Part shown: positions 7,811 through 55,554 of the stretch, one piece after another
Position numbering within the stretch: position 1 is the stretch's first letter
Layout of the letters: the number at the start of each line of letters is the position of its first letter
Assembly (NCBI GenBank): GCA_965207885.1
Contig: OZ242311.1
Coordinates: forward strand, 1,920,001 to 1,984,000
Origin: Candidatus Latescibacterota bacterium
Lineage (GTDB): Bacteria; Latescibacterota; UBA2968
Length of the DNA: 64,000 nucleotides
Direction of reading: 5' to 3'
The notes under the pieces: model-generated
What the model was told of the DNA's origin: nothing
Database searches by the model: none
The model's input: only the letters and a program-made list of their open reading frames with translations
Program-made: the position numbers and the translations under genes

Positions 7811-7844
7811 GTGCAGGTAGCGCGCAAAAAGGAGAACTGACAAG

Positions 7845-15663: not shown

Positions 15664-16098
15664 GTGAGTTTCTTGATAGGATATTATCTTTGGCTAAAAG
15701 TTGTACATCTCATCGCTATCATCGGCTGGATGGTCGGCATTTTGTATTTGCCGCGGCTATTTGCCTATCACGCCGATGCCTCTGCTGATACAGATGTGGT
15801 GTTTCAACAGATGGAATACAATCTTATGCGGCTTCTGCTTATGCCCTGTATAATTGTGGTTTTTATTACGGGCATTCTTTTAATTGTTGCAACGGAGAGC
15901 CTGGCGAGCGGGTGGCTTCATACCAAAATTCTACTCGTGCTCATGCTCGCCGGTTTGCACGGCATGATGTCGCGCCAGCGCAAGAATTTTCAACGCGGCG
16001 AAAATACCAGAAGCGCGGCTTATTTTCGCACTTTTAGCCACGTTACAACGCTTATTGTGATCCTCGTTGTCGCGCTGGCTGTTTTGAAACCTTTTTAG
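15664..16098 (+). CDS. hemJ: Protoporphyrinogen oxidase HemJ (CopD/DUF420 family)
   Basis: YLWLKVVHLIAIIGWMVGILYLPRLFAYH, GWLHTK, LAVLKPF; GTG start after GAGGAG. Confidence 0.88.
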   Translation: MSFLIGYYLWLKVVHLIAIIGWMVGILYLPRLFAYHADASADTDVVFQQMEYNLMRLLLMPCIIVVFITGILLIVATESLASGWLHTKILLVLMLAGLHGMMSRQRKNFQRGENTRSAAYFRTFSHVTTLIVILVVALAVLKPF

Positions 16099-16122
16099 TA
16101 TCCTTTTAAGTGGGAGTGAAGC

Positions 16123-16872: not shown

Positions 16873-16921
16873 GATCGGTGGGTCCCCTTCGACTGGTAGC
16901 AGTCTCACAGACCTTTTTCGA

Positions 16922-40166: not shown

Positions 40167-43100
40167 TCAGGCCCTTTTTGCCACGGCTACAATCCGCTTT
40201 GTATATCCCGACAGGTCGTCCATGAGCGAATATATGGTGGGCAAGATGACGAGCGTGAGGATGGTAGAGATCGAGAGGCCAGAGATAATGACCAGACCAA
40301 TTGGTCCCCAGCGCCTGGCATTGCCTTCGGCATTGCCGTAAATCATCGGGATAACCAGCGGCGTAAGCCCCAGGATGGTCGTGGTTGCTGTCATCAAAAT
40401 GGGACGCAGGCGATCCTGTCCGCCGCGCAAGATCGCATCTCTGCGATATAGCCCTTGTTTGCGATAGCGATTGATGTGGTCGATTAATACAATGCCGTTG
40501 TTGACCACAATGCCAAACAAGATGAGCAATCCATAGGTCGCATTGCTGTCCAGCGCTATGCCAAATATGTAAAGTCCCAATGCGACACCTATAAACGCAA
40601 AACTGATCGAAAACATGATGGTAAATGGATGGATGTACGATTCAAATAGCGATGCCATGATCAGATAAATGAGTAGTGCCGCGAAAATCATAGTGAAATT
40701 CGTTTCGCCCTCTTCTGAAGCCATATAGCGGAATCGTCGATCCATCTGCCAACTATACCCCTGGGGCAATGGGATGGCATCCATGCGGTCGCGCATTTCA
40801 TAACCGACCGTTTGGACTTCGGATGCTTCCGTGTTTGCGAACACGGTTACGGTTGACATCCGATCCTGGCGTTCAATGGATCGGGGACCTTTGGTCAATT
40901 CAAAATCGGCCAGGCTGGCAAATGCAATCATATTGCCCCGGTTGTTTTCAAAAGAGAGGGTTTTGAGTTGATCCAGCGTGGCGCGGTCCTCTTCTCGCAA
41001 TTGCAGCGCAATATCGATTTCTCCATCCGGCGTTTTGAATTTGCTATTTCCGCGCGCTCCCAATGCCGTGGCAACAGTTGTAGCTATTTGCTGCGGTGAC
41101 AGGCCGTATTGTTGCGCGCGTTCTCTCCTCACCGAGACCCTGATTTCTTCTGTGCCACTTTCCAGGCTGGTTTCCACGTCGTGAATGCCCTCGATATCGT
41201 CCATTCGCAGCCGAATATCTTCAGCCAGGATAGCCAGTACTTCGGGATTTCGCCCTTTGATTTCTACCCCGACGCCCGTGCCACTGCTACCACCACGCCT
41301 GAAGCCCGCCTTAAAACGCACGCCCGGGATGTCTTTGGGCAGCAAAGCACTTACCTTTTTTTTCACATCATCTGTGCTCAATGGGCTTTCTTCGACGGGT
41401 TTTAAGTACAAATAGATCGTATTGCCGCGTCGGGTGCTAAATCGCGTTTTTATCGCTTCGATATCCAGTTCTTCCTTTTGCGGGATGATAATGGCTTCGA
41501 TTTGTTTGAAAAGCGCGAGTGCGTCGTCGATATCGTACGTTCGCGGCATTTCCACCATATAGCCCACCATTCGGTCGGGTTGATAGCGATAGCGCTGTAC
41601 TTCAATTTTGGTGAAAATGTATATGCCGCCAAATAGGATAAATATAGCGACGACAACGGTGGTCCAGCGATAGTGCAGGGTTGTGCTAATTACGCGCGTG
41701 TAAACACCTTTGAGACCAAGATGTCGAAAGCGAAAATAGAAATAGCCGGTTGTGGCGACGAATGCGCCCAGCACGATCCACACGGCTATTGGCACGGTTG
41801 AAAGCCCGCCTAAAACCCACAGAGTACTATCTTTGAGCCAGTTGGCCGATTCGACAATGCCTTCCTGGTAAATGAGATACGCAGCGCCTGTGGCGAATAA
41901 AGTGCCCAATCCAATTTTTAAGAAGAGATCAACGCGATTACCCGCATTTGAAAATGCCCGAGAGCAGGCCAGGGGTATGAGTGTTAAAGCCACGCATAGT
42001 GCGGCTACGACTGCAATGCACACGGTGATGGCAAAATCGCGCATCCACATTGTATTGTACGATCCAGAAATAAAGATGAGGGGTACAAATACACATATTG
42101 TCGTCAGTGCCGCCGCCAGTACGGGTATGCCGATTTCGCGGCTGCCCTCAATTGCTGCGGTTCGCGTGCCATCGCCGACATCAAAACGCCTGCGATAAAT
42201 ATTTTCCAGAGCCACGACCGCTGGATCGACCAGCATCCCAATGGCGACCATCAGACCCATCATCGAGATCATGTTCAGCGTAATAGTCGATCCAAATACT
42301 TGCCGCATCAGATACATGATCATAAAAACGCACAATACCGAAATGGGAATGGCCGACCCCACAATGAGCGTGCTGCGGAAGTTTCGCAAAAACACAAAAA
42401 TGATGCCAATAGCCAGCATGCCTCCCAACATGGCGGATTGCCCCAGGCTGGTAATGCCCCTTACCACTGCTTCTGATTGGTCTCGACGTAAGTGCAATCG
42501 CAATTTGTCGCGCCCAATTTCATCTTGAAGAGCGTCTAACTCTGCCCGAACCAGCCGGCAGGTTTCTACCAGATTGGCTGTCGAGGTTTTGCGAATTTCC
42601 ATAGAGACCACATCGCGCCCGTCCATGCGTTCAAAATATCGCTTTTCAGGATAGTCGTAACTCACCTGCGCCACATCTTTTATTTCCAGACCATTGGGAA
42701 GCGTGAGATCGCGTATTTGATCCACTTCGTCAAATTCGCCCACTGTCCGAACAGCGAGGCGTTTGTCGCCTTCGGTGACGTAACCGCCAGAAATATTGAT
42801 GTTGTTGAAGCGAATCGTTCTGTTGAGGGTGCGGATATCTAAGCCATGGGCATGCATGCGATTTTTATCGACATCGACTCGGAGTATTCTTTCATCGGCA
42901 CCTTCCATTTCGACATTGCCCACCCCGGGGATGCGTTGCAAGCGCGGTAAGATTGTGTTTTTATACACTGTGACGAGTTCAGATTGATTATCGCCCAGCC
43001 AGATCATATTGTAGTCCAGAATTTCCCAATCCGACGAGTCCCATCTGCGCATCTCAATGCGTTCGAGGTCTTCGGGAAGTCTGCCGCGAACTTGATCGAC

Positions 43101-43433
43101 GCGATCTCGCACCTGAATAGATTTGAGATCCATATCGGTACCGTAGTCAAATTCCATGAACACATAACCCCGACTGTCATAGGATCGCGCGCGGAGTGAC
43201 TCAATGCCGGGAATCGTGCCCAGCATCTCTTCCATTGGCTTGGTAATTTTCTTTTGGATCTCTTCGGGCGATGACGAGGGATATGTATAGCTCACATACA
43301 TCCTGGGATACTGCAAGTCGGGCGCGTATTCGAGCGGCAATCTGAATAGGGAAATAAAACCCATGACTATGAGACTGAGCGCTATCATTACAGCAGTAAT
43401 GGGTTTTTTGATCGCGTATTCCGAGAGTTTCAT
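40167..43433 (-). CDS. RND efflux transporter permease (AcrB/AcrD/AcrF family)
   Basis: SSPEEIQKKITKPME, AIGMLVDPAVVALENI, GIVVNNGIVLID, RLRPILMT. Confidence 0.92.
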   Translation of the reverse strand: MKLSEYAIKKPITAVMIALSLIVMGFISLFRLPLEYAPDLQYPRMYVSYTYPSSSPEEIQKKITKPMEEMLGTIPGIESLRARSYDSRGYVFMEFDYGTDMDLKSIQVRDRVDQVRGRLPEDLERIEMRRWDSSDWEILDYNMIWLGDNQSELVTVYKNTILPRLQRIPGVGNVEMEGADERILRVDVDKNRMHAHGLDIRTLNRTIRFNNINISGGYVTEGDKRLAVRTVGEFDEVDQIRDLTLPNGLEIKDVAQVSYDYPEKRYFERMDGRDVVSMEIRKTSTANLVETCRLVRAELDALQDEIGRDKLRLHLRRDQSEAVVRGITSLGQSAMLGGMLAIGIIFVFLRNFRSTLIVGSAIPISVLCVFMIMYLMRQVFGSTITLNMISMMGLMVAIGMLVDPAVVALENIYRRRFDVGDGTRTAAIEGSREIGIPVLAAALTTICVFVPLIFISGSYNTMWMRDFAITVCIAVVAALCVALTLIPLACSRAFSNAGNRVDLFLKIGLGTLFATGAAYLIYQEGIVESANWLKDSTLWVLGGLSTVPIAVWIVLGAFVATTGYFYFRFRHLGLKGVYTRVISTTLHYRWTTVVVAIFILFGGIYIFTKIEVQRYRYQPDRMVGYMVEMPRTYDIDDALALFKQIEAIIIPQKEELDIEAIKTRFSTRRGNTIYLYLKPVEESPLSTDDVKKKVSALLPKDIPGVRFKAGFRRGGSSGTGVGVEIKGRNPEVLAILAEDIRLRMDDIEGIHDVETSLESGTEEIRVSVRRERAQQYGLSPQQIATTVATALGARGNSKFKTPDGEIDIALQLREEDRATLDQLKTLSFENNRGNMIAFASLADFELTKGPRSIERQDRMSTVTVFANTEASEVQTVGYEMRDRMDAIPLPQGYSWQMDRRFRYMASEEGETNFTMIFAALLIYLIMASLFESYIHPFTIMFSISFAFIGVALGLYIFGIALDSNATYGLLILFGIVVNNGIVLIDHINRYRKQGLYRRDAILRGGQDRLRPILMTATTTILGLTPLVIPMIYGNAEGNARRWGPIGLVIISGLSISTILTLVILPTIYSLMDDLSGYTKRIVAVAKRA

Positions 43434-43527
43434 AAATGGGCCTCAAAGGGGCAAAAATTGAAGGTTGAAGTAAGATGTGAGACGCGATTCGCAGGGTGCG
43501 TCTATCAGAGACTGAGACAGATTTCGC

Positions 43528-43545
43528 TAAGTAACCATTTACTTA
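43528..43545. promoter_or_regulatory. Palindromic operator-like site upstream of RND gene
   Basis: TAAGTAA-CCAT-TTACTTA just downstream of a minus-strand TGnTATATT -10 element (43555-43563). Confidence 0.5.
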
Positions 43546-43698
43546 CTTACGGATAATATACCACATTTCGCCGCAAAAGCAACCATAGTTTTTTAAAAAT
43601 TTTACCGTTACAGAAAAGACTTGCGATTTTGTTTTAATAGATATTTCATGCTGAAGTCTGGGTCATAATCACACATTCACTTTCCAAAGGAGACTTCC

Positions 43699-44580
43699 AT
43701 GGGCAATCGCGTCAATCGCGCAGTTGAGTTGCTTTCACAAGATCAACCTATCTATTACACGGGCGCACACACGGGGCATGTGCTTACGTTTGAACAGGGT
43801 CAGAATGACGCCAGTACCTGGGCGGATTATATCAATGTGGGTATGGAACACGGGGCTTTTAATCTGGGAGGGCTTGACGACTATATGCGCGGTCTGGTCA
43901 GCGGGGGACCTACAAATAGCGGGCACAGGACGCCAGCCGTTATTGTTGAAGCCCCTGTGGAGGGCGCGTCGGAAAATATTGTGCGCTATAATGCCTGGCA
44001 ATTTCGGCAGATTCTCGCGCGCGGTGTACACGGCGTGTTGCTCTGTCAGGCGGAATCGCCCGATGCGATACGCGCTTTTGTCGAGTCATGTCGCTATCCC
44101 ATTAACAAGATCGGCGTTGGACACGGCCTCAGTACAGGTACGCGAGGCGTGGGCTCCGAATCATCGGCAGCAGCGATATGGGGTGTTAATCGCGATGAGT
44201 ACATCCAGAAAGCCGATCCCTATCCGCTGAATCCCGATGGCGAGTTGCTGTTGGGCATCAAGATTGAGAATGTGCGCGGCGCATCCAATATCGAACAGAT
44301 TCTCAAGGTGCCCGGCATTGGGTTTGCCGAAATGGGACCGGGCGATTTGAGTATGTCGATGGGATATTTGCACCGTCCAACGCCTTTTTCTCCCGAAATG
44401 CAAGAGGTGAGAGATCGCGTGAAGGCCGCGTGTGCAGAAAACGGCGTTGCTTTTCTCGAGGGGGGTAGTCCCGAGACGGTTACCGCAAAAATAGACGAGG
44501 GCGTGCGCGTGGTTTCTGGGGGCAGGGAAGAGATCGCGCGTATTGGACGTGAATATTCAGGCCGTCGCATGCCGGTTTAA
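43699..44580 (+). CDS. HpcH/HpaI aldolase/citrate lyase family protein
   Basis: GMEHG, FVESCRYP, KIEN, VPGIGFAEMGPGDLSMSMG. Confidence 0.82.
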   Translation: MGNRVNRAVELLSQDQPIYYTGAHTGHVLTFEQGQNDASTWADYINVGMEHGAFNLGGLDDYMRGLVSGGPTNSGHRTPAVIVEAPVEGASENIVRYNAWQFRQILARGVHGVLLCQAESPDAIRAFVESCRYPINKIGVGHGLSTGTRGVGSESSAAAIWGVNRDEYIQKADPYPLNPDGELLLGIKIENVRGASNIEQILKVPGIGFAEMGPGDLSMSMGYLHRPTPFSPEMQEVRDRVKAACAENGVAFLEGGSPETVTAKIDEGVRVVSGGREEIARIGREYSGRRMPV

Positions 44581-44581
44581 T

Positions 44582-44616
44582 AAAAAAATAGGGCTGTGCG
44601 ATGTTTGCACAGCCCT
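44582..44616 (-). terminator. Intrinsic terminator between convergent genes
   Basis: AGGGCTGTGC...GCACAGCCCT hairpin with an A7 run on the + side (U tract on the minus strand). Confidence 0.75.
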
Positions 44617-44638
44617 GGAGGTCCGATTTAATACTCGC

Positions 44639-45112
44639 TTAAAATGGATTGCCCTGGCGGGCCAGCTCAAATTTGCGCCAGCCGACTTGTTTGTCATTTT
44701 CAAATACTTTTTGTATGGCGTAAAAGGAGGACGGGTCGTATTCTCGCCAGACGCCTGTTTTCTTTCCCTCCAGGTATCGGCCTTCTTCTTTTTTTACACC
44801 GTTTCTAAAATAAGATATCCAATACCCATCCTTCACGCCATTGGTCCAGTTGCCTTCTGTTTTTTTCTGTCCGTTGCTGTAAAATGTGATTTCAAGTCCG
44901 TCTTGCATGACGCCATTTTTGTATGTACCCTGCCCGCGCACGTTGCCCGCGGCATCGTAATATGTCCAAACCCCAGCGCGGGCACCACTGTCGTATTGCC
45001 CTTCTGCGAGTACGCGGCCGTATTGTTTTATTTGTGTCTGTCCTTCAAATAGCGCGGGCATCTGACACCCGGCTGTGAGGATTCCTACGAGAAGAATTAA
45101 AACTCTGATCAT
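44639..45112 (-). CDS. MORN-variant repeat (YwqK-like) lipoprotein
   Basis: LTAGC lipobox; repeats FYSNGQKKTEGNWTNGVKDGYWISYFRNG. Confidence 0.8.
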   Translation of the reverse strand: MIRVLILLVGILTAGCQMPALFEGQTQIKQYGRVLAEGQYDSGARAGVWTYYDAAGNVRGQGTYKNGVMQDGLEITFYSNGQKKTEGNWTNGVKDGYWISYFRNGVKKEEGRYLEGKKTGVWREYDPSSFYAIQKVFENDKQVGWRKFELARQGNPF

Positions 45113-45250
45113 TTATTTTCTCCTGTGTTGTTCTTTGATGAATATTTTACTACAATAGAACTAATATACATAACTGCTTTCATAAGGCAAGATGAAATGA
45201 CAAATGACTTGTTTAATACGTGCGTGTGCTCATACATATTATACCAGACC

Positions 45251-45310
45251 TCAACCGAAAAGCGATTGTACTCAACGATCTCTTTATTGTCACAATCGTC
45301 TTCTCATTGT
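45251..45310. promoter_or_regulatory. Three tandem 19-bp operator-like boxes, WCAAY-N9-ATTGT
   Basis: TCAACcgaaaagcgATTGT (45251), TCAACgatctctttATTGT (45272), ACAATcgtcttctcATTGT (45292). Confidence 0.7.
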
Positions 45311-45337
45311 AATTTTTTATAAAATAAAGAATCCAAT

Positions 45338-46063
45338 ATGCTACTCATCGAACTCGGTCAACGCCTTCGCGCTCAACGGGAACGCCTTGGTCTCAAGCAA
45401 AACGATATTGCCAATGCCCTGCAGGTAAGCCCACAGGCTGTCTCCAAGTGGGAAAGGGGTGAAAACGGTCCCGATATTGCCACTTTGGGACCGCTTGCCA
45501 GATTGCTCGGCGTTTCTACGGACTGGCTTTTGGATGCACATAGCGAAAATCAAGATGTTTTTGATGCTACTATCTTTACCTCTACAGTTGTCGGTGCATA
45601 CCAAAAATCATTGCAAATGGAAGCGCGGGAGTTTGCAGCCTGGGCAAATGGTATTTTGTTTCAACTGACCGAAGCTGTTTTGCGCCACGATGGCGTTCCG
45701 CTCAGATATATGGGAGACGCATTTTTGTGTTTTTTTTCTGGCGTTCACCATCAGCTTCGCGCTGTCCAGGCAGCGGCATTTTCTCAGCGGCTCATCAGCG
45801 AGGACCTGGTCATCGGCTTGAGTAGCGGTGAGATTTATTTGGGCGCGATGGGGCATCCCGATTACGCCCATCCCGATGTGACAGGCGAAGTGGTCAACAT
45901 CGCATTTATTGTCCGAGAATGGGCAGAAACAAATGTCCGCAAAGGAATTGCAGCAACGACATCCGTATTGAACAATCTCGATGAAGTTTTTGATATTTCC
46001 CAACCCACAGAAATCAATTTTCGCGGCATCAAAACGCCCATCTCACTGGTCAGAATCAGATAG
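45338..46063 (+). CDS. XRE-family HTH regulator fused to a degenerate class III nucleotide-cyclase-like domain
   Basis: LQVSPQAVSKWERGENGPD HTH; C-terminal HDGVPLRYMGDAFLCFF, IGLSSGEIYLGAMG, DVTGEVVNIAF. Confidence 0.8.
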   Translation: MLLIELGQRLRAQRERLGLKQNDIANALQVSPQAVSKWERGENGPDIATLGPLARLLGVSTDWLLDAHSENQDVFDATIFTSTVVGAYQKSLQMEAREFAAWANGILFQLTEAVLRHDGVPLRYMGDAFLCFFSGVHHQLRAVQAAAFSQRLISEDLVIGLSSGEIYLGAMGHPDYAHPDVTGEVVNIAFIVREWAETNVRKGIAATTSVLNNLDEVFDISQPTEINFRGIKTPISLVRIR

Positions 46064-46107
46064 GGGTGTTCCCTGCCGCGTATGCCAACCGAGAGAAAGG
46101 ATGAAAT

Positions 46108-47559
46108 ATGGCCGATATAGTGTTGCCCGATAGCGCGACTGATATTCAAATTCCCGATTATTCGCATCTGCCCTATAAAGTCGCCGATATGTCTCAGGCA
46201 GATTTTGGACGGAAAGAGATCACAATTGCCGAGCGCGAAATGCCCGGGTTGATGGCTGTGCGCGAAAAATACGCAGACCAGAAACCTCTGAAGGATGCCC
46301 GCATAATGGGATCTCTGCACATGACGATTCAAACGGCTGTGTTGATCGAGTCGCTCAAAGTGTTGGGGGCCGATGTGCGCTGGGCGTCGTGCAATATTTT
46401 TTCTACGCAGGATCACGCCGCTGCCGCTATTGCGGAAACGGGTACGCCGGTTTATGCGTGGAAGGGCGAGTCGCTGGAAGAATATTGGGAATGTACTTTG
46501 CAGGCACTCAATTTTGTGGAGGGTGGACCGACACTTATTGTCGATGATGGCGGGGATGCGACGCTGCTGGTTCACCGGGGGTATCAGGCTGAAGACGATC
46601 CTTCGATTCTCGATGAGCCGACAAATAATCGCGAATTGGAGATTGTCAATGCCGTGCTCAGGCGGCAACTCGAACGCAATCCGCGTTTTTGGCACAATAT
46701 GGCCGCGGATATTCAGGGTGTGTCAGAGGAGACTACAACGGGGGTTCACCGTCTGTATCAGATGAGGGATGAAGGCAAGCTTCTCTTTCCCGCGATCAAT
46801 GTCAATGATTCGGTGACCAAATCGAAATTCGATAATCTCTATGGCTGCCGCGAGTCGCTCGCCGATGGTATTAAGCGCGCGACAGATGTTATGGTCGCCG
46901 GGAAGGTTGTGTGTGTGTGCGGTTATGGCGATGTGGGCAAGGGTTGTGCCCAATCTATGCGCGGATTTGGTGCGCGCGTGTTGGTGACAGAAATCGATCC
47001 GATATGTGCTTTGCAGGCGGCGATGGAGGGGTTTGAAGTGACGACTGTGGAAGATGCTCTTTCCGAAGCCAATATTTTTGTTACGACGACGGGCAATACG
47101 GATATTATCCGCATTGAGCACATGGAAAATATGCTCGATCAATCCATTGTGTGCAATATCGGGCATTTTGACAATGAGATTCAGGTCGATAAGCTGGGCG
47201 ATTATCCGGGTATTATGCACGAAAATATCAAGCCGCAGGTCGATAAATACACGTTTCCAGATGGGCGTGCGATCTTTTTGCTCGCAGAAGGCCGTCTGGT
47301 CAATCTCGGCTGTGCGACCGGGCATCCTTCTTTTGTGATGTCCAATTCGTTTACCAATCAGGTGCTGGCGCAAATCGACCTGTGGGCACAGCAGCGCGAA
47401 ATTGGCGTTTATACTCTGCCCAAACACCTCGATGAGGAGGTTGCGCGGCTTCACCTCGAAAAACTCGGTGTAAAGTTGACCGAACTCACGCAGAAGCAGG
47501 CCGATTATATTGGCGTGTCCGTCGAAGGTCCGTATAAACCCGATCATTATCGGTATTGA
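46108..47559 (+). CDS. ahcY: Adenosylhomocysteinase
   Basis: [53 protein letters not shown]. Confidence 0.98.
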
Positions 47560-47603
47560 TTAGGGCTTATTCCGCCAGTTCCTGATCCCCAGTCCCCTTT
47601 TTT

Positions 47604-48482
47604 ATGCGATTTTTAGACTATTTTACCGGTAATCAGCCGGTCATTTCTTTTGAGATTTATCCGCCGCAGACGCAGGGTGGTATGCGCGCCCTCAAAGCGC
47701 GGGTTATACCCAATTTGCTCAAGCTGAATCCCAGTTATATGACGGTTACGTATGGTGCAGGTGGTTCTACCCGCGCCAAAACACTGGAGATTGCCTCGCT
47801 TATCCAGAACGAATTTGGTCTGACTGCGGCGTGTCATCTCACCTGTGTGGGGTCGTCCCGAACGGATATCGATGATATTCTGAAGGCGATTCGCACAGAG
47901 GGTATTCGCAATATTGTCGCGCTTCGCGGCGATCCCCCGCGCGGCGAAGATACTTTTGTGCCCGCGAAGGATGGATTTGCATACGGCAATGAGCTTGTGG
48001 CGCATATTCGCAGTACTGAACCGAAAGACGATGGGTTTGGGTTGGCTGTTGCAGGGTATCCCGAGAAACACCTCGAAGCACCCGATTTTGATACGGATAT
48101 TGAAAATCTCAAGCGCAAGGTCGAGTCAGGTGGGGATATTATTATTACGCAGCTTTTTTACAATAACGATTATTTTTTTCGCTTTGTCGATCGCGTGCGT
48201 GCAGCCAATATTACAGCACCTGTTGTCCCGGGTTTGATGCCGATTCTCGCGGCGGGACAGATACAGCGCATCGCGTCTTTGTGCGGGTCTGAGATTCCGG
48301 AGGATTTGCGGGATCAACTCAAGGGGGCTGTGGATGATGAAGATAAGGCGATGAGAATCGGTATTGATCAGTGCATTGGGCAAGCAACTGAGTTGCTCGA
48401 GCAGGGCGTGCCGGGTATTCACTTTTACGTGCTCAACAAATCCACCCACATGCGTCGGATTATCAGTGCGCTTCCTCTCTGA
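47604..48482 (+). CDS. metF: 5,10-methylenetetrahydrofolate reductase
   Basis: ISFEIYPP, VTYGAGGST, HLTCV, ALRGDPP, AGYPEKH, ITQLF, GIHFYVLN. Confidence 0.96.
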   Translation: MRFLDYFTGNQPVISFEIYPPQTQGGMRALKARVIPNLLKLNPSYMTVTYGAGGSTRAKTLEIASLIQNEFGLTAACHLTCVGSSRTDIDDILKAIRTEGIRNIVALRGDPPRGEDTFVPAKDGFAYGNELVAHIRSTEPKDDGFGLAVAGYPEKHLEAPDFDTDIENLKRKVESGGDIIITQLFYNNDYFFRFVDRVRAANITAPVVPGLMPILAAGQIQRIASLCGSEIPEDLRDQLKGAVDDEDKAMRIGIDQCIGQATELLEQGVPGIHFYVLNKSTHMRRIISALPL

Positions 48483-49080
48483 GAGGAAATTTCTCAGTGA
48501 TTAACAGGATTGGCTTTTTATTGGCGAATACCCTGTAGGTGCGGCTGAGTAGTGGTTCCCCTTCAAGATGTGCAATGGCTTCCGGCAGATCCCGTGCGGT
48601 TTCAACGCAGCACCACAACAATTCACGGCGGGTTTCCAGTCCGCTGTTTTGCAGAATTCCTCCCAATCCCGAAGGATCTGATTCCAATCCGTCCAAAATG
48701 CCTTTTGGCAAGTGTTGTGGTACAATGAGGGATGTGGCATACGCCTGAGTTTTCGGCGTTTCGTTGCCGATTGAGGGTGTTTGTAATGCTACTTGTCGCG
48801 CGATGACTGGTGCTCCTGATGGCAACTCGAGCCAAATATGCTCTGTGCAGAGTGTCTGTTCCGCCTGATGGAGGAGTACGACTTCCACAGGTGTGAGTGT
48901 ATAGGCTTCGATGAGTCTTGTGACGGTGCCGTCGGTGACGATCAATGCCCGCTGGAATGGCGTTAATTGCGCGATGTTGATTTCTCCAGACATTGCTGGC
49001 CTTTCGGCTTGTGCGACAAATATATTTTTTATATGTGTGTCAGCAAAGGTTGTCGAATTGAAAATTGAATCTGTCTTCAT
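48463..49080 (-). CDS. Chorismate pyruvate-lyase-like (UbiC/DUF98) protein
   Basis: FQRALIVTDGTVTRLIEA, AYATSLI, LGGILQ..LETRRE, SRTY..LLITEKFP. Confidence 0.78.
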   Translation of the reverse strand: MKTDSIFNSTTFADTHIKNIFVAQAERPAMSGEINIAQLTPFQRALIVTDGTVTRLIEAYTLTPVEVVLLHQAEQTLCTEHIWLELPSGAPVIARQVALQTPSIGNETPKTQAYATSLIVPQHLPKGILDGLESDPSGLGGILQNSGLETRRELLWCCVETARDLPEAIAHLEGEPLLSRTYRVFANKKPILLITEKFPLREEAH

Positions 49081-49208
49081 CGAGCTATTGTCCTTTCATA
49101 TATACAGTTGTTGTGTAACGCAGGTGCACTTTAGACACATAAGGACAAAAAAAGTTCTGAAACATTGCATGTGTGATTCTAATCAGTTATTTTGATGGAA
49201 AGGACAGC

Positions 49209-49973
49209 ATGCGTATCATAACCTGGAATGTAAACGGATTGCGGGCGGCGCTTCGCAAGGGGTTTATGGATCATATTAAAATGCTAAATCCCGATGTGAT
49301 CCTTTTGCAAGAAATTCGGGTTTTGCCCGAGCAACTATCTGTGAGCGAGCGCAATCCCGAGGGATGGCATGTTATCTGGCATCCGGCCGAGCGCAAGGGC
49401 TATGCGGGTACAGCGGTATGGTCTCGCACGCCTTTAAATGAGGAAGAACGCGGCGTGGGTGGGGCCGATTCTGAAGGCCGGATTTTGCGGGTGAGTACTC
49501 TGGGGATTCAATTTGTCAGCGTGTACCTGCCTTCGGGATCTTCAGGTGATGAGCGCCAGGCGATCAAGGAGTGCTGGATGGATCGCTTTCGCCTCTGGGC
49601 TGATGGCATGGTGAAAAAACGGGTTCCCACGATTATGGGCGGTGATTTTAATATCGCGCATACCGAACGCGATATTTTTTATGCCAGGAGCAACGAAAAA
49701 AATTCGGGTTTTTTGCCGCATGAACGCGCGTGGATGGGCGATCTCATCTCATCGGGCTGGCGCGATTTTACACGGGAACAATACGGCGATATCCAGGGGC
49801 CGTATTCGTGGTGGTCCAATCGGGGAAGAGCCAGAGAGTTGGACCGCGGCTGGCGTATCGACTATTTGTTGGGCAATGCAGCCGCCGCAAAGCGTGTTCA
49901 ATTTGCCCGTGTTGATCGCGAAGGCGGTTTGACCATATCTGATCATGCACCGGTTGTTGTAGATTTGAAATAG
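49209..49973 (+). CDS. xth: Exodeoxyribonuclease III / AP endonuclease
   Basis: ITWNVNGLRA, LQE, KGYAG, GDFNIAH, YSWWSNR, GWRIDY, SDHAP. Confidence 0.95.
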   Translation: MRIITWNVNGLRAALRKGFMDHIKMLNPDVILLQEIRVLPEQLSVSERNPEGWHVIWHPAERKGYAGTAVWSRTPLNEEERGVGGADSEGRILRVSTLGIQFVSVYLPSGSSGDERQAIKECWMDRFRLWADGMVKKRVPTIMGGDFNIAHTERDIFYARSNEKNSGFLPHERAWMGDLISSGWRDFTREQYGDIQGPYSWWSNRGRARELDRGWRIDYLLGNAAAAKRVQFARVDREGGLTISDHAPVVVDLK

Positions 49974-49995
49974 CTCATACACACAGGAGATTTCC

Positions 49996-51426
49996 ATGCA
50001 CAATCTTGAAACACATCCTTTTGCAGCGTTATTCGGCGTTGATGAAAGCGTGGCTGCGCAGGCATTGTCCGAAGCGATGTCCCGAGGTGCCGAATTTGCC
50101 GATCTGTATTTTCAGCATGTGCGTACCACTTCTCTCAGTTTGGAAGATGGCATTATTTCCAGTGCCAATACAGGCGTTGATCAGGGTGTGGGGATTCGCG
50201 CGGTGATTGGAGATCAGGTTGGCTATGCTTTTTCCGAGAGTTTAGAGGCAGATGCGATTTATGCGGCTGCCCGGACAGCGGCTGCGATAGCAGAGGGCAC
50301 AAAAAATGTGCCGCCGCAACACCTGCAGGGCAGAGAGGTTGACAATTACTACGCGATTGACCGCGACTGGGATGAGGTCAATATTACCGAACGCCTGCCA
50401 CTGGTGCAGAATGCGGAAACTCTGACCCGCGCAATGGATCCCGCAATAGAAAAGGTGTCTGTGGGGTGGATGGATAGAGATGAGTGCGTGCTCATTGTGA
50501 CCAGCGATGGTGTTTTCAATACGGATCGGCGGCCTATGGCGACGCTGTATTGTTCGGTGACTGCCAATAAGAATGGCGTGCGGCAGAGCAATGGGGCTTC
50601 GGTTTCCCGGCGCGAGGGGATTGGCTATTTTACCGAAGAGAATATCAAAGCGGTCTGTCAAAAGGCGGTTGATCGCACGATGATTCTCTTTGAGGCGCAG
50701 CGCCCACCCGCTGGCGAGATGCCGGTGGTGCTTGCAGCAGGTGCTTCGGGTATTTTGCTCCACGAGGCGATTGGGCACGGTCTGGAAGCGGATTTTAACC
50801 GCAAGGGGACTTCTATTTACGCGACGATGATAAACGAGAAAGTCGCCCCGGATTTTGTAACGATTGTCGATGATGGCTTGCAGGAAAATGATCGCGGAGC
50901 GCTCAATGTAGATGACGAGGGTCAGGCTACTGCGTGTACGACGCTTATTGAAAACGGCGTCTTAAAAAGCTATTTACACGATCGCATTTCGGCCAGGCAC
51001 TACGGGGTTGCACCCACGGGGTCGGGACGGCGTGAGAGTTTTCGGCATGTTCCTATGCCGCGTATGCGATCTACGTATATGCTCGACGGTCCCCACTCCC
51101 GCGACGAGATTATTGGCGCTGTCGATTACGGCATTATTGCCGATACGTTTACCAATGGGCAGGTGCAAATAGGCGCGGGAGATTTTACTTTTTATATCAA
51201 GAATGGATGGCTTATCGAAGGCGGCAAAATCACCGCGCCGATCAAGGATGTCAATATTATTGGCAATGGTCCCGAGGCTTTGAAAAATGTGGTTATGGCA
51301 GCAGGCGATGCCGTGTTGGATGATGGTAGCTGGACGTGTGGAAAAAATGGACAGGGTGTGCCCGTTTCGATGGGTGTTCCGACGATGCTGGTGGAAAAGA
51401 GTATGACTGTGGGTGGGGTGAACTAA
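49996..51426 (+). CDS. tldD: TldD metalloprotease subunit
   Basis: LLHEAIGHGLEADFNRKG, PMPRM, CGKNGQGVPV. Confidence 0.93.
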   Translation: MHNLETHPFAALFGVDESVAAQALSEAMSRGAEFADLYFQHVRTTSLSLEDGIISSANTGVDQGVGIRAVIGDQVGYAFSESLEADAIYAAARTAAAIAEGTKNVPPQHLQGREVDNYYAIDRDWDEVNITERLPLVQNAETLTRAMDPAIEKVSVGWMDRDECVLIVTSDGVFNTDRRPMATLYCSVTANKNGVRQSNGASVSRREGIGYFTEENIKAVCQKAVDRTMILFEAQRPPAGEMPVVLAAGASGILLHEAIGHGLEADFNRKGTSIYATMINEKVAPDFVTIVDDGLQENDRGALNVDDEGQATACTTLIENGVLKSYLHDRISARHYGVAPTGSGRRESFRHVPMPRMRSTYMLDGPHSRDEIIGAVDYGIIADTFTNGQVQIGAGDFTFYIKNGWLIEGGKITAPIKDVNIIGNGPEALKNVVMAAGDAVLDDGSWTCGKNGQGVPVSMGVPTMLVEKSMTVGGVN

Positions 51427-52770: not shown

Positions 52771-54054
52771 ATGTCTGCCGCGTCAAAAACGCTGCGCCAT
52801 ATTGCATTGGATATCCTCTGCCGCGTTGAACGGGGCGCGTATCTCGACCGTTTGCTCGACGCGCAGCGCGAACATATTCGCGGTCCCGATGGCGATTTGC
52901 TTCAGCATCTCGTTCGGGGTACGCTGACCTATCGGGCGCGGCTCGATCATATCTTGACGCCCTATCTCAAAAAACCCCTGTCCAGACAGCACGCCAAACT
53001 CCGCAATCTCCTGCGCCTCGGTGTTTATCAACTCCAGTATCTCGACCGCGTGCCGCCTTATGCGGTTGTTTCTGAATCCGTTATTCTCGCCCGTCACATT
53101 CTCGGGGAGCCGATTGCGAAATTGGTCAATGCTGTGTTGCGCAGTGTGGCCGAAGATCGCAGACCTGTTGTTTTTCCCGATTTTGATAGCGATCCCGTCG
53201 AATATCTCGCTATTACGACATCACATCCCCAATGGCTCGTTGCGCGGTGGATCAAACGCTACGGTGTGGATGAGACACGCGCCCTGTGTGAATTTGACAA
53301 CGCCCAACCCACCCTGACCATTCGCCCCAATGCGTTGCGAACGACGTCCAATGCCCTGCGCGAGCAACTCGCTCTCGAAGGGATTGACACAGAATTTGCA
53401 GCATCCAACCTTCTCGCCGTATCCCATGTGGGCCACCTTTTTCAGAGCAGGGCTTATTGCGCTGGTCTCTTTAGCGTTCAAGGCGCAGGGGCTGCGATGG
53501 TTGTTCCCCTGCTCGATCCGCAACCTGGCGAGGCTGTTCTGGATCTGTGCAGTGCGCCCGGCGGCAAAACCACTGCTATGGCCGAGCGCATGAAAAATCG
53601 GGGTTTTATTCTCGCCACAGATCTCTATCCGCGCCGTCTCGAAATGCTAAAAAAAAACACGCACCGACTCGGGGTTACATGTGTTTATCCTCTCGCTGCC
53701 GATGCGCGTTATCTGGCTGTCAATCGCTTATTTGACCGCGTTCTGGTCGATGCGCCCTGTTCCTCGCTGGGTATTCTGAATCACCATCCCGATCTGCGCT
53801 GGCGGAAATTCGATATTCACGGTCTTGCACATTTGCAGCGGACGCTTCTCGATAGCGCTGCGGATTACGTCTGTCCAGGTGGTGTTCTCGTCTATAGCAC
53901 TTGTACCCTCGAACCCGAAGAAAATGAGCGCGTTGTCGAAGGCTTTTTAAGCGATCATCCGGGCTTTCAAATCACCCATCCCTATCTGCAATTGCTGCCC
54001 CATCAAACTGGTAACGACGGTGTTTTTGCCGCGCGGTTGAAGTGCTCCGTTTAG
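52771..54054 (+). CDS. rsmB: 16S rRNA m5C967 methyltransferase
   Basis: NusB-like N-terminus; SHPQWLV, LDLCSAPGGKT, VDAPCS, YSTCT. Confidence 0.92.
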   Translation: MSAASKTLRHIALDILCRVERGAYLDRLLDAQREHIRGPDGDLLQHLVRGTLTYRARLDHILTPYLKKPLSRQHAKLRNLLRLGVYQLQYLDRVPPYAVVSESVILARHILGEPIAKLVNAVLRSVAEDRRPVVFPDFDSDPVEYLAITTSHPQWLVARWIKRYGVDETRALCEFDNAQPTLTIRPNALRTTSNALREQLALEGIDTEFAASNLLAVSHVGHLFQSRAYCAGLFSVQGAGAAMVVPLLDPQPGEAVLDLCSAPGGKTTAMAERMKNRGFILATDLYPRRLEMLKKNTHRLGVTCVYPLAADARYLAVNRLFDRVLVDAPCSSLGILNHHPDLRWRKFDIHGLAHLQRTLLDSAADYVCPGGVLVYSTCTLEPEENERVVEGFLSDHPGFQITHPYLQLLPHQTGNDGVFAARLKCSV

Positions 54055-55535
54055 GCCAACTCGTAGTGTCTGGGGTCAGGTAGTGGCACTGGCCGGGCAT
54101 CTTCGGTGTTGATGCTCCAGTCGGCCAGTCGCAGACGCATGGCGGCGAGGGCGTCGCGATGTTGATCTTCGTCGATCACATTGACCAACTCGCCTGGGTC
54201 GGCGACGAGGTCGTAGAGTTCGTCGCGGTCCCCCATGGGGTCGTGGACGTATTTCCACTGGCGGGTGCGGACCATCTTGCACCGACCAGCTGCCTCGCGC
54301 CACTGCAAGGTGTCAATCAAGGTCTTGCGGCCCCAGGGTTGAGGTAGCTTTTCCAGGTCGGCCATAGTAAAGAGCGGTCCTCCGCTTCCGTATTCGGAAA
54401 AAGTCGCGTCCCGGGGTGCGGTTGCGGTTACAGTGGGTAGCGGTATTCCGTGCATGGAATGCGGTTGGGCCATTCCTTGCAAGTGCAACAGCGTGGGTAC
54501 CACGTCAATCAGATTGGCCATGCTCTGATCGCGCACCCCGGCGGTGACCTGCCCGGGCCAGGAGACGATCAGCGGCACCCGCGTCAGGCTGTCGTAGAAG
54601 ACGCCGCCCTTGCACTGCATGGCGTGTTCTCCCATAAAGTCGCCGTGGTCCGAACAAAAGACGACAATTGTCTGTTCTCGTAGCCCCAGTGCCTCGAGTT
54701 TGTCGAGTATTTGACCGAGTGCGTCGTCGATAAAGCGCACCATGCCAAAATACGAGGCCATAACGCCGTAAACGTCTTCAATTGGATCGCGGTGCATCCC
54801 CAGCATCTGGTAGAGCACGCGGTTGCGCTCGGGCGCTCGCTCGTCGTCAAATTCCCCGTCGCGCCAGGGGGGAAGGTCAATATTTTCGGGTGGAAACAAG
54901 GCCGCGTACTCGGCCGGACATAGCCAGGGCTCGTGTGGATCGGGAAAGGAGACCCACAGGGCAAAGGGTTGGTCTTGGTACTTTTCGATAAAGCGCGTCG
55001 TCTGTCCGGCGATCAGGCCGGTGGAGTGATCCTCCAGGGGCAACTCGGAGGTGCCGTAGCTGAAGCGGGGGTTCTGATGGGCGAGCTGGCGATTTTCGGC
55101 GGCGACCTTGCGGCGGCCTTCTGCCGGGCGGAACCAGTCCATGCCCCGCGTCTCTTCGCCGCTACCGCCGTGGGTACCGGGGTTCCACACGTCGAAGAGG
55201 GCCAAATCCTCCTCCTGTTCGAAGCAGTGGTTTTTGCCGATTAGACCCGTGGCGTAGCCCGCTGCTTTCCAGAGTTGCCAGGCGTGTTCGGCACCGGCTG
55301 GCATCAAGGTCTGGTTGCGTCGGCCCCCGTGCGAGTGGGGAAACTGCGAGGTCCAAAATGAGATGCGTGCCGGCACGCAGAGGGGGTGCGGGGTGATGGC
55401 GTTTTCAAAGAGGACTCCGCTGTCTGCCAGGCGTTCCATCGACGGGGTTTGACAAAAGGTGTTGCCGTAGAGATGGCTGGCTGTGGCGCGCTGTTGGTCG
55501 GTCATGATTACCAGGATGTTGGGGCGGTCAGTCAT
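54051..55535 (-). CDS. Formylglycine-dependent sulfatase
   Basis: PNILVIMTDQQR, CVPAR, GKNH, SDHGD, ELYDLVADPGE. Confidence 0.92.
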   Translation of the reverse strand: MTDRPNILVIMTDQQRATASHLYGNTFCQTPSMERLADSGVLFENAITPHPLCVPARISFWTSQFPHSHGGRRNQTLMPAGAEHAWQLWKAAGYATGLIGKNHCFEQEEDLALFDVWNPGTHGGSGEETRGMDWFRPAEGRRKVAAENRQLAHQNPRFSYGTSELPLEDHSTGLIAGQTTRFIEKYQDQPFALWVSFPDPHEPWLCPAEYAALFPPENIDLPPWRDGEFDDERAPERNRVLYQMLGMHRDPIEDVYGVMASYFGMVRFIDDALGQILDKLEALGLREQTIVVFCSDHGDFMGEHAMQCKGGVFYDSLTRVPLIVSWPGQVTAGVRDQSMANLIDVVPTLLHLQGMAQPHSMHGIPLPTVTATAPRDATFSEYGSGGPLFTMADLEKLPQPWGRKTLIDTLQWREAAGRCKMVRTRQWKYVHDPMGDRDELYDLVADPGELVNVIDEDQHRDALAAMRLRLADWSINTEDARPVPLPDPRHYELA

Positions 55536-55554
55536 GGTGTTCTGCCTCGTTTTT

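Follow-up and report, generated by a model that had tools for sequence, protein, structure and literature searches.

Organization of the putative regulator-ahcY-metF locus

The window, a stretch of 64,000 nt from Candidatus Latescibacterota bacterium (contig OZ242311.1, positions 1,920,001 to 1,984,000), contains three consecutive genes, of which the first encodes a two-domain protein, here called the regulator. The following features were assigned (positions are those of the window):

45338..46063, + strand: regulator ORF, 241 aa
45338..45535, + strand: N-terminal XRE/Cro-C1 helix-turn-helix (HTH) of the regulator, residues 1-66 (Pfam HTH_3, E 7.2e-16)
45554..46063, + strand: C-terminal degenerate class III cyclase-homology domain of the regulator, residues 73-241, and stop codon (profile, AlphaFold and Foldseek fold; residue map)
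46108..47559, + strand: ahcY, S-adenosylhomocysteine (SAH) hydrolase, 483 aa (TIGR00936, 626.6 bits)
47604..48482, + strand: metF, methylenetetrahydrofolate reductase, 292 aa (TIGR00676, 316.1 bits)

These coordinates agree with the sequence-only reading, in which the three genes had been placed on the same strand with 44 nt in front of both ahcY and metF (gaps at 46064-46107 and 47560-47603). Besides the NCBIfam models TIGR00936 and TIGR00676, both matched above their cut-offs, ahcY and metF matched the Pfam families AdoHcyase (E 3.3e-150) and MTHFR (E 7.7e-89), respectively. No terminator-like hairpin was detected in the 44-nt gap between the regulator gene and ahcY. RNA cover of the locus consisted of assembled contigs from one study, in which the flanking genes on the opposite strand were covered too; these contigs hint that the three genes may be transcribed as a single unit. 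Over positions 45248-45371 the RNA cover was absent in runs X1 and X4 and low in X2 and X3, a pattern that does not qualify as a transcript start.

The putative regulator family and its gene neighbourhood

The N-terminal part of the regulator is an XRE-type HTH. Pfam HTH_3 matched residues 10-64 with 58.4 bits against a cut-off of 23, and the family profile of this part matched the P22 C2 repressor (1adr) with E 7.2e-12. The HTH is nearly invariant among phyla. Pfam and NCBIfam scans revealed no ArsR or methyltransferase domain in the regulator, which instead combines the XRE HTH with a cyclase fold.

The family is uniform, with 52 clusters at 50% identity and an architecture of 240-250 aa, and the titles of its records cover at least nine phylum-level groups; no cultured organism was found among the annotation names of the cluster members. 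The genome of the window carries a single copy. For the survey of gene linkage 104 loci with a match of more than 200 aa were collected, of which 95 were evaluable. ahcY was the next gene in 60 of these 95 loci; counted by clusters at 70% identity, this holds for 20 of 44. In a further 17 loci the next gene was another methyl-cycle, one-carbon or adenosine gene, namely metH, metE, a pterin methyltransferase gene, an adenosine deaminase gene, purA, thrC, rlmN or a small ORF that in most cases precedes thyX, and 18 loci had no recognisable methyl-cycle neighbour. The linkage to methionine-cycle genes, on which the sequence-only reading had made its proposal depend, is thus conserved among homologs. 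The gene order ahcY-metF was seen at L089 as well as at L001-L004 and L030, which are Latescibacterota loci; at L018 the regulator gene forms an operon with metH. Among neighbouring ORFs, Pfam and NCBIfam searches gave no match for a 123-aa ORF, for the ORFs of L142 or for the downstream ORFs of L024 and L025.

A degenerate class III cyclase domain

The C-terminal half (residues 70-241) had been read as a class III cyclase fold. Searched with the regulator alone, Guanylate_cyc (PF00211) aligned residues 78-232 to profile positions 10-173 of 183 with E 0.0044 and a score of 17.1 bits, below the cut-off of 21.9 bits. The assignment is nevertheless firm, because family profiles strengthen this weak single-sequence match: the C-terminal family profile A2 matched the PDB entries Cya2 2w01 (E 1.6e-15) and CyaB 3r5g (E 3.6e-14). 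In structural comparisons with an AlphaFold model of the regulator (mean pLDDT 87.1), Foldseek retrieved 2w01_C with E 9.9e-13 and TM 0.76 and 1wc1 with TM 0.79-0.81 at an rmsd of 1.7 Å, the range over cyclases being TM 0.76-0.82.

All of the cyclase motifs quoted in the sequence-only reading were found in the translation (RYMGDA at residues 123-128, IGLSSGE at 159-165, DVTGEVVN at 180-187, IFTSTVVG at 79-86 and VNIAFIV at 186-192). Its statement that the first metal Asp and the catalytic Arg are missing was borne out by alignment to solved cyclases, which puts T83 and I191 at the respective positions. In the alignment to 5oyh, K497 corresponds to residue 123, D566 to residue 180, D501 to D127 and N573 to N187; T83 takes the place of the metal ligand D457, and I191 that of the NxxxR Arg. 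In the work describing 5oyh, K497 and D566 hydrogen-bond adenine N1 and N6, D501 serves metal and ribose, and D457 serves metal (PMC5967339).

Conservation was counted over 204 distinct family members. The adenine- and ribose-facing positions are retained: column 123 holds Lys in 185 and Arg in 8 members, the window protein being among the latter (R123), and D180, D127 (the second metal Asp) and N187 are kept in 203, 198 and 197 members, respectively. At column 123 the guanylyl cyclase 2w01 has Glu and its adenylate-converted derivative 6fht has Lys. In contrast, more than 90% of the members lack the first metal-binding Asp, and likewise the transition-state Arg: column 83 holds Asp in only 16/204, and column 191 holds Arg in 1/204 and Leu in 180/204. 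Four invariant residues, N104, T111, H173 and Y176, are family-specific. Judged by these residues, the domain appears not to be a working cyclase, as had been proposed.

Prediction of two copies of the C-terminal domain with SAH gave a score of 0.92, against 0.00 for the best control. This mark was reached by 20 of 30 solved one-chain pairs and by one of 23 solved single chains, and passing it may reflect likeness alone, because class III cyclase homodimers have already been solved. The runs shared at least 96% of contacts, with a partner pLDDT of at least 93. The predicted dimer is head-to-tail, with an interface comprising residues 104, 111, 123-126, 171-178, 180 and 182-187, and the model would place the kept residues together with N104, T111, H173 and Y176 at an interface pocket.

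A tandem operator adjoining the predicted promoter

Upstream of the regulator gene the following elements were assigned:

45251..45265, + strand: distal operator unit of the type TCAAC-N5-xxxxA, centre at about -64 from the predicted transcription start (39-nt tandem matrix)
45272..45286, + strand: proximal operator unit abutting the -35 element, centre at about -43 (18-mer score, spacing)
45287..45292, + strand: predicted -35 hexamer TTGTCA (spacing between the operator, TTG and TANNNT)
45310..45315, + strand: predicted -10 hexamer TAATTT, 17 nt past the -35 hexamer (sequence reading, spacing statistic)

The consensus derived from 62 distinct sites consists of two 15-nt TCAAC-N5-CGTCA units 21 nt apart, and this spacing recurs at loci from many phyla. 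The unit is only weakly palindromic, an unusual feature for the operator of an XRE dimer. A first operator matrix was dropped as evidence, having been trained on the same loci that it scored. With a cross-phylum matrix built from 13 loci, none of them from Latescibacterota, the 39-nt site of the window ranked first of 12,457,366 genome positions (25.6 bits; runner-up 23.8 bits). Of 67 loci in an independent metagenome set whose upstream sequence was long enough, 51 scored above 15 bits with the matrix; the genome-wide rate, 63 positions above that score, predicts about 0.1. The proximal unit was the top intergenic, gene-oriented 18-mer of the genome in two scans (18.6 and 23.1 bits). The tandem operator is absent upstream of the regulator gene in 6 of 27 genome loci, with only the proximal unit at L006 and no unit at L008, L015, L016, L021 and L026. 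Binding of the operator by the regulator protein is what these sequence patterns suggest.

The distance from the TTG at the end of the operator to TANNNT was exactly 17 nt in 43 of the 62 sites and 18 nt in 11 (54 together), compared with 0-9 sites at other offsets, and the -35 TTG is conserved at 0.92-0.97. A strict promoter-consensus scan listed 5 sites, against 4.7 in shuffled sequence, and missed the proposed promoter because its -10 hexamer matches TATAAT at only three of six positions. The 15-nt units stop before the -35 hexamer, and the regulator probably does not read the TTG, because conservation is poor at the three corresponding positions that follow the distal unit.

Distribution of operator sites and search for other regulators

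In the genome of the window, the second-best intergenic, gene-oriented operator site in two scans (17.8 and 18.4 bits) lies upstream of metH, and metK has no operator site. A tandem site of 33.6 bits was found at metH in genome G007 and a single unit of 15.5 bits at metH in G006. For five genomes in which the regulator gene does not adjoin ahcY, an IUPAC pattern search that allowed up to three mismatches to the tandem operator was abandoned, because the hits were mostly coding-like, were sometimes no commoner than in the reversed control and lay near a panel gene at none of 30 fetched loci. Instead, ahcY and the homocysteine-methyltransferase genes were located first and their upstream regions were then scanned. 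Sites were detected upstream of ahcY in G002 (39-mer, 14.0 bits) and G003 (18-mer, 16.6 bits) and not in the other three of the five genomes, and no site was found near the homocysteine-methyltransferase genes of G008, G009 and G010.

Earlier, SAM and SAH riboswitches had been reported as not seen at the locus, and an Rfam scan of positions 43000-50000 was likewise empty at E <= 1. Across the genome of the window no SAM-I riboswitch was found, nor a SAH riboswitch (RF01057), a search that matched none of 14 control genomes either. MetJ (PF01340) had no match in this genome and matched in the E. coli control.

Comparison with known regulatory systems

Functional parallels are offered by SahR and the SAH riboswitch. 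As is proposed for the regulator, SahR is a one-component factor, and its core regulon is the SAM cycle with ahcY, metH and metF (PMC4239095). It is often encoded beside its targets and autoregulated. SahR differs from the regulator in joining an ArsR-type HTH to a methyltransferase-like SAH-binding domain, both unrelated to the XRE HTH and the cyclase fold, in having a 20-bp palindrome as its operator, where the putative operator here is a tandem of weakly symmetric 15-nt units at the -35 element, and in controlling metK, which has no site here. For the SAH riboswitch (RF01057), the same source gives a core regulon of ahcY and metF, taxon-specific inclusion of metH and, in some taxa, of rRNA methyltransferase genes, and never metK; for riboswitches and SahR/SamR such a pattern is taken there to mean SAH and not SAM (PMC4239095). 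Here these correspond to the ahcY-metF operon, to the site at metH and to rlmN next to the regulator gene at L139. As read from operator sites, the content of the putative regulon (ahcY, metF and metH, without metK) matches that of SAH riboswitches, although those are leader RNA elements and the regulator is a protein.

With the class III cyclases Cya2 2w01, CyaB 3r5g, CyaC 1wc1 and CaAC 5oyh the regulator family shares the fold, the Lys/Asp pair that specifies adenine, the Asn and the second Asp, and it is predicted to form their type of head-to-tail dimer. It differs in the loss, in over 90% of members, of the first metal-binding Asp and of the transition-state Arg, in its N-terminal XRE HTH and in N104, T111, H173 and Y176. 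The solved proteins most closely related to the HTH are the lambdoid repressors P22 C2, 434 cI and lambda cI; they have another C-terminal domain, no metabolite sensing and unrelated operator sequences. Lambdoid repressors bind adjacent operators cooperatively. Degenerate GGDEF domains provide a precedent for a dead nucleotidyl-cyclase-like fold that serves as a nucleotide receptor, and mycobacterial cyclase-ATPase-LuxR HTH proteins one for cyclase domains fused to DNA-binding domains. The former belong to a separate family with c-di-GMP or GTP as ligand, the latter are active cyclases with a C-terminal LuxR HTH, and neither has a link to the methyl cycle.

Proposed mechanism and alternative explanations

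On its sequence features the 241-aa protein is best explained as a one-component transcription factor whose family has not been characterised before, and it very probably governs methyl-cycle genes. Its XRE-type HTH would bind the tandem operator just upstream of the -35 element in sigma-70-type promoters. One operator would head the regulator-ahcY-metF operon and a second copy would precede metH in the same genome, so that the regulator would control both SAH recycling and homocysteine re-methylation. Having lost its first metal Asp and transition-state Arg, the cyclase domain would no longer cyclise nucleotides; the residues that hold adenine and ribose are kept, and the pocket at the dimer interface would bind an adenosyl metabolite, most likely SAH, whose occupancy would turn the promoter on. 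That the ligand is of the adenosyl type is considered probable; its identification as SAH in particular is tentative. The central proposal, that the protein regulates the methyl cycle and uses its dead cyclase domain to sense an adenosyl ligand, we regard as reasonably probable.

As to the direction of control, we lean slightly towards an activator. Activation is favoured because the geometry resembles that of the lambda and P22 repressors, which activate PRM from a site adjoining the -35 element. De-repression is a close alternative, and a site adjacent to the -35 element is compatible with repression as well as with activation. A ligand-free tetramer on the operator might hinder RNA polymerase at the -35 element and be released by the same SAH-type signal, a mode of action that is possible and on balance doubtful. 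Most XRE-family proteins are repressors, and SahR acts as a repressor that SAH releases. The conserved TTG may mean that the promoter is competent unaided, and the Latescibacterota loci carry a weak third unit (5.3 bits) between the -35 and -10 elements. Against repression stand the end of the units before the -35 hexamer, whose TTG the protein probably does not read, and the rigid abutment with 21-nt phasing; rigid abutment to the -35 element is the classical layout of activators that contact sigma region 4. On the other side, SahR, the known SAH-responsive factor, controls the same genes (PMC4239095).

The preferred assignment of SAH as the ligand has to be weighed against another adenine compound, be it SAM as a co-regulator of methyl-donor sufficiency, adenosine or an adenine nucleotide, which we consider rather unlikely. 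The retained contacts concern adenine and ribose, and the data leave the remainder of the ligand unspecified. Among the neighbours of the regulator gene, those for adenosine deaminase (at L008 and L120) and a nucleoside transporter (at L012), like purA (L123, L147), fit an adenosine signal about as well as SAH, and the thrC gene that follows the regulator gene in L010 and L023 would also be consistent with sensing of SAM. Column 229, that of the gamma-phosphate Lys, holds a basic residue in 136 of 204 members; however, the missing first metal Asp and Arg speak against tight binding of a triphosphate. The AhcY reaction is reversible, and adenosine removal is itself required to pull it forward, which counts against another ligand. 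So does the regulon in the genome of the window, with ahcY, metF and metH and without metK, a pattern that for riboswitches and SahR/SamR was read as pointing to SAH and not SAM (PMC4239095).

It is improbable that the cyclase half is a mere dimerisation scaffold, with regulation proceeding without a small molecule or through a partner protein. Most of the invariant residues lie in the predicted interface, and their conservation could serve dimer stability alone; yet base and ribose residues are kept where phosphate and catalysis residues have drifted, a selectivity that a pure scaffold does not need, and comparable metabolic operons are normally controlled by metabolites. That a DNA-binding domain is here joined to a nucleotide cyclase that still works, as implied by the label 'class 3 adenylate cyclase' that JGI gives to many members, is very improbable: Asp83 does occur in 16 members and L011 retains an FVDIGGF-like stretch, but Arg191 is found in a single member, the window protein has T83 and I191, and Pfam Guanylate_cyc stays under its cut-off. 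That the protein is an ordinary phage- or antitoxin-type XRE repressor standing beside ahcY by chance is hardly credible, as the RstR, DicA and HipB-type NCBIfam matches of its HTH are weak, far under their cut-offs and confined to residues 1-80, and the chance reading is contradicted by the neighbour survey, with ahcY linkage in 20/44 clusters, by the single copy in the genome and by the metagenome operator scores.

Implications for methyl-cycle control

Present understanding of how the activated methyl cycle is controlled comes mainly from Proteobacteria (MetJ, MetR, SahR, SAH/SAM riboswitches) and Firmicutes. To our knowledge, no methyl-cycle regulator is known for the mostly uncultured phyla that carry the regulator family, and a literature search for regulators of SAH metabolism of the XRE or cyclase type returned nothing relevant. 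The family looks like a previously undescribed methylation-cycle switch. In its fullest and most speculative form, the proposal would be that the dead cyclase is a SAH receptor, that a dimer-of-dimers activator at -43/-64 switches on SAH hydrolase, methionine synthase and methylenetetrahydrofolate reductase, that this factor is the chief controller of the methyl cycle in phyla without SahR, MetJ and SAH riboswitches, among them Latescibacterota, Hydrogenedentota, Planctomycetota, Nitrospinota and Armatimonadota, and that it is the first metabolite sensor of cyclase-homology fold in a transcription factor.

The public labels of the family, 'class 3 adenylate cyclase' and 'helix-turn-helix domain-containing protein', currently mislead the metabolic reconstruction of the genomes that carry it. 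With an operator, a promoter geometry and a predicted regulon, the family is a testable candidate, and the pattern of lost and retained residues is clean enough to direct mutagenesis. The cyclase-homology fold would thereby gain a new role, that of a non-catalytic ligand sensor.

Gene organization and transcription of the regulator locus

The region 45338-48482 comprises three co-oriented ORFs separated by successive gaps of 44 nt each:

45338-46063, + strand, regulator ORF of 241 aa (ORF call, Pfam domains)
46108-47559, + strand, ahcY (TIGR00936, 626.6 bits)
47604-48482, + strand, metF (TIGR00676, 316.1 bits)

The regulator is present as a single copy in its own genome (Candidatus Latescibacterota, 6.23 Mb, one contig; recovered with 100% identity as locus L001). 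An XRE-type HTH was assigned to residues 10-64 (Pfam HTH_3, E 7.2e-16), and the cyclase model PF00211 aligned to residues 78-232 with E 0.0044 and 17.1 bits, under its cut-off of 21.9. No Rfam family matched within 43000-50000 at E <= 1. Terminator-like hairpins were found in neither 44-nt gap, and a weak hairpin falls within the final codons of ahcY. The 3′ end of metF shares 20 nt (48463-48482) with that of a convergent gene of 205 aa (48463-49080, - strand) carrying a chorismate pyruvate-lyase (Rv2949c-like) domain (E 2.9e-17). The G+C content of the window is about 0.50, apart from the 2-kb bins 16001-18000 (0.61) and 54001-56000 (0.59).

RNA evidence came from contigs assembled in a single study (sponge metagenome, four metatranscriptome runs) that show at least 99% identity to the window. 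The regulator-ahcY junction was bridged by contigs in three of the four runs (31-letter rule), with DNA carry-over being possible, and the ahcY-metF junction likewise in three of four, the flanking opposite-strand genes being covered too. These contigs, which as assemblies are no proof, hint at a single regulator-ahcY-metF transcript.

Family of the regulator and its distribution

A word-indexed protein search with the regulator returned 874 matches at E <= 0.001, the best 120 of which have 240-316 aa and share 55-95% identity over 92-100% of the query; their source names are solely 'class 3 adenylate cyclase', 'transcriptional regulator with XRE-family HTH domain' and 'helix-turn-helix domain-containing protein'. 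When the C-terminal domain alone was used in an exhaustive profile search, 52 cluster representatives (50% identity) were matched at E <= 1e-30, and beyond these the matches run on without a break into long, ordinary cyclases. Since the non-fragment representatives are alike in length (about 240-280 aa) and domain start (near residue 70), the family architecture is considered uniform.

Gene loci were collected in two independent samples. The genome scan yielded 80 loci: 28 full-length (L001-L027, L030), 2 partial and 50 HTH-only, the latter being set aside. The metagenome scan, for which patterns from the cyclase half only were used, yielded 80 loci, and an HTH was located in front in all 80 where the contig permits. 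According to the record titles, the full-length genome matches belong to Latescibacterota, Hydrogenedentota, Nitrospiraceae, Nitrospinaceae/Nitrospinota, Armatimonadia, Planctomycetota (Pirellulales, Thermoguttaceae), Syntrophorhabdaceae, Syntrophus, 'delta proteobacterium', Polyangiaceae, Treponemataceae and 'Zipacnadia'. On an uncultured Ruminococcus contig (L042:5983-6957), an XRE HTH with the QAVSKWERGE signature of the regulator is fused to a class I methyltransferase-like domain (EIGAGPGGG stretch, judged by eye), the sensor domain type of SahR.

The cyclase-fold half

A profile (A2) built from 14 C-terminal domains matched the solved class III cyclases Cya2 (2w01, E 1.6e-15), CyaB (3r5g, 3.6e-14) and CaAC (5oyh, 2.3e-12). 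The AlphaFold model based on family alignment A1 (mean pLDDT 87.1, pTM 0.67) matched 2w01_C with E 9.9e-13 and TM 0.76, 1wc1 with TM 0.79-0.81 (rmsd 1.7 A) and 6sir with TM 0.82.

Passages of PMC5967339 describe that in 5oyh adenine is hydrogen-bonded by K497 (donor to N1) and D566 (acceptor from the amino group), the metal is held by D457 and D501, of which D501 also contacts the ribose, and N573 is the conserved catalytic Asn. By HMMER alignment to these residues, K497 corresponds to residue 123 of the 241-aa protein, D566 to D180, D457 to T83, D501 to D127 and N573 to N187, with I191 at the position of the Arg at Asn+4. Residues were counted over 204 distinct members (103 locus translations and 120 best search matches, identical sequences merged). 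Position 83 is Asp in 16 members, Ser in 96, Thr in 50 and Gly in 30, and position 191 is Leu in 180 and Arg in 1. Position 123 is Lys in 185 and Arg in 8, as in the window protein, while D127 is present in 198, D180 in 203 and N187 in 197. As a cross-check of column 123, the guanylyl cyclase 2w01 has Glu and its adenylate-converted derivative 6fht has Lys. Based on the counts, the residues holding adenine and ribose are under selection and two residues essential for catalysis are gone; the C-terminal half is predicted to be a cyclase fold that is unable to cyclise. Family-specific, near-invariant residues are N104, T111, H173 and Y176 (202 or more of the 204 members in each case).

Co-folding of two C-terminal domains with SAH predicted a homodimer with a score of 0.92 (best control 0.00), which denotes likeness to solved class III homodimers and is not proof; in the calibration, the mark was reached by 20 of 30 proteins solved as same-chain pairs and by 1 of 23 solved as single chains. 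The contact agreement between runs was at least 96% and partner pLDDT at least 93. The predicted interface (residues 104, 111, 123-126, 171-178, 180 and 182-187) takes in the pocket residues.

Conserved linkage to SAH recycling

Neighbouring genes were assigned by a tblastn panel and the remaining ones by Pfam/NCBIfam scans. Among 104 loci with a match of more than 200 aa, 95 were evaluable (at least 300 nt downstream), and the next co-oriented gene within 1 kb was recorded.

Next gene downstream of the regulator in 95 evaluable loci
ahcY: 60
123-aa ORF: 6
metH or homocysteine S-methyltransferase: 2
adenosine deaminase: 2
purA: 2
threonine synthase: 2
metE: 1
methyl-THF:corrinoid methyltransferase: 1
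rlmN: 1
nothing recognisable (panel and Pfam/NCBIfam): 18

Because related loci are not independent, counts were also made by single-linkage clusters at 70% identity; in the 44 evaluable clusters the next gene was ahcY in 20, another panel gene in 14 and none in 10. A nucleoside transporter follows ahcY in L012. In the six loci with the 123-aa ORF, the gene thereafter was thyX (3), a pterin-binding methyltransferase (1), or a contig end or no panel gene (2).

The 123-aa ORF, positioned between the regulator and thyX or the pterin-binding methyltransferase, is conserved in Syntrophus/Syntrophorhabdaceae-like loci (L014, 6784-7152; L019, L022, L156, L157, L159). The encoded protein has two hydrophobic stretches and, towards the C-terminus, a CxxC...CxxC pair; neither Pfam nor NCBIfam gave a match. 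In other Latescibacterota genomes (L010, L023; ~6756-8170) a more distant regulator with 54% identity lies upstream of threonine synthase (TIGR00260, 221.9 bits), not ahcY, with the same kind of tandem operator as in the rest of the family (37.8 bits). In the metagenome locus L104, a metK (62% identical to MetK of the own genome) is encoded divergently on the opposite strand, 285 nt upstream of the regulator, and shares with the regulator-ahcY operon the intergenic region carrying the operator (24.8 bits). From this arrangement, metK may belong to the regulon of some lineages.

Predicted operator and promoter

The upstream regions of the family loci contain a recurring tandem with unit starts 21 nt apart. 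When both strands of the own genome were scanned with a matrix derived solely from 13 non-Latescibacterota loci, the site 45251-45289 ranked first among 12,457,366 positions (25.6 bits vs 23.8 for the next). In the metagenome set, which played no part in matrix building, 51 of the 67 loci offering 120 nt or more of upstream sequence scored above 15 bits, and 48 above 20 bits; by the genome-wide rate (63 positions above 15 bits) about 0.1 would be expected versus the 51 observed. The 62 distinct sites yield the consensus TCAAC-N5-CGTnA, six variable bases and TCAAC-N5-CGTCA, directly followed by TTG; the unit has only weak symmetry. A TANNNT hexamer follows the TTGnnn hexamer with a spacing of 17 nt in 43 of the 62 sites and of 18 nt in 11 (other offsets 0-9), so the TTG is predicted to be the -35 box and the units would be centred near -43 and -64; in the window, transcription is predicted to start near 45320-45325, from these elements:

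45251-45265, + strand, predicted distal operator unit of the tandem site
45272-45286, + strand, predicted proximal operator unit of the tandem site
45287-45292, + strand, predicted -35 box, from the TTG after the operator
45310-45315, + strand, predicted -10 box, from its spacing to the -35 box

A promoter-like site on the minus strand (45265-45293, GTGACA-17-TACAAT, 10/12 positions) overlaps the operator and points to a divergent MORN-repeat gene (44639-45112), whose position upstream of the regulator is conserved in Latescibacterota loci only.

Predicted regulon

Intergenic 18-mer (single-unit) matches pointing at a gene start within 250 nt were collected in the own genome, where the regulator operon ranked first and metH second. 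The metH gene (1218-aa ORF) has its site 71 nt upstream, scoring 17.8 bits by the other-phyla matrix and 18.4 bits by the all-sites matrix; TTGnnn and TANNNT hexamers again follow the site, 17 nt apart. No site was found at metK or at two further homocysteine-methyltransferase-like genes. In other scanned genomes, a full-length metH has a tandem site of 33.6 bits 150 nt before the Pfam match start (G007) and another metH a proximal unit of 15.5 bits (G006); G008, G009 and G010 have no site near homocysteine-methyltransferase genes. In five genomes the regulator does not adjoin ahcY (G001-G005). Upstream of the first aligned ahcY residue, G002 has a tandem site of 14.0 bits (81 nt) and G003 a unit of 16.6 bits (115 nt), with null rates over the 12.46 million positions of the own genome of 15 for the 39-mer at >= 14 bits and 48 for the 18-mer at >= 16.6 bits; no site was found upstream of ahcY in G001, G004 (160 nt of upstream sequence only) or G005. 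The predicted regulon comprises an ahcY and metF core, often metH and once an rRNA methyltransferase, without metK.

Outside the window, the own genome contains about 28 scattered copies of an identical 18-mer in both orientations, 123 nt in front of a 190-aa ORF (e.g. G000:C1:225160, 237033, 521014); these copies look like a multi-copy insertion element.

Proposed mechanism and relation to known systems

In the proposed mechanism, each 15-nt unit would be bound by two HTHs, brought together by dimerization of the cyclase-fold domain, and, because 21 nt equal two helical turns, two dimers would occupy the same DNA face. An adenosyl ligand, most likely SAH, bound in the interface pockets would alter the HTH geometry and raise the expression of genes removing SAH (AhcY), homocysteine (MetH, MetE, MetF) and adenosine (deaminase, transporter, PurA route). 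A unit that stops exactly at -36 and is paired with another at -64 would have the geometry of activators touching sigma region 4. Lambdoid repressors activate at PRM by contacting sigma region 4 from such a geometry, and the regulator HTH has its closest solved relative in P22 C2. Due to this activator-like geometry, the PRM precedent and the P22 C2 kinship, ligand-dependent activation is slightly favoured, with de-repression by the ligand as the less probable alternative.

With regard to the ligand, passages of PMC4239095 decide between SAH and SAM as effector by which SAM-cycle genes a regulon contains or lacks. By that logic, the predicted regulon content would make SAH the signal of the regulator; SAM, adenosine or a nucleotide would be possible ligands instead. 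The predicted regulon matches the reconstructed regulon of the SAH riboswitch (PMC4239095, section 9) and overlaps that of SahR (section 8), which additionally takes metK. The regulator is predicted to work like both but is a member of neither family, and it shares the fold of class III cyclases but lacks two of their defining catalytic features. In the own genome no SAM-I riboswitch and no MetJ were found, and a search for the SAH riboswitch, which had no positive control, matched neither this genome nor the control genomes. Full-text literature searches turned up neither an XRE-cyclase regulator nor any such regulator of ahcY, and the literature on methyl-cycle control returned known systems only.

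Shown here are a uniform protein of HTH and apparently dead cyclase, with selectively kept adenine and ribose contacts and conserved linkage to SAH recycling, and an operator that is shared across phyla and holds a fixed position relative to the putative -35 box in the promoters of ahcY, metH and the regulator gene. The regulator is rated as belonging to a known kind, the metabolite-sensing one-component regulators of the methyl cycle, its novelty residing in a predicted sensor fold without precedent and an equally predicted, well-defined operator.
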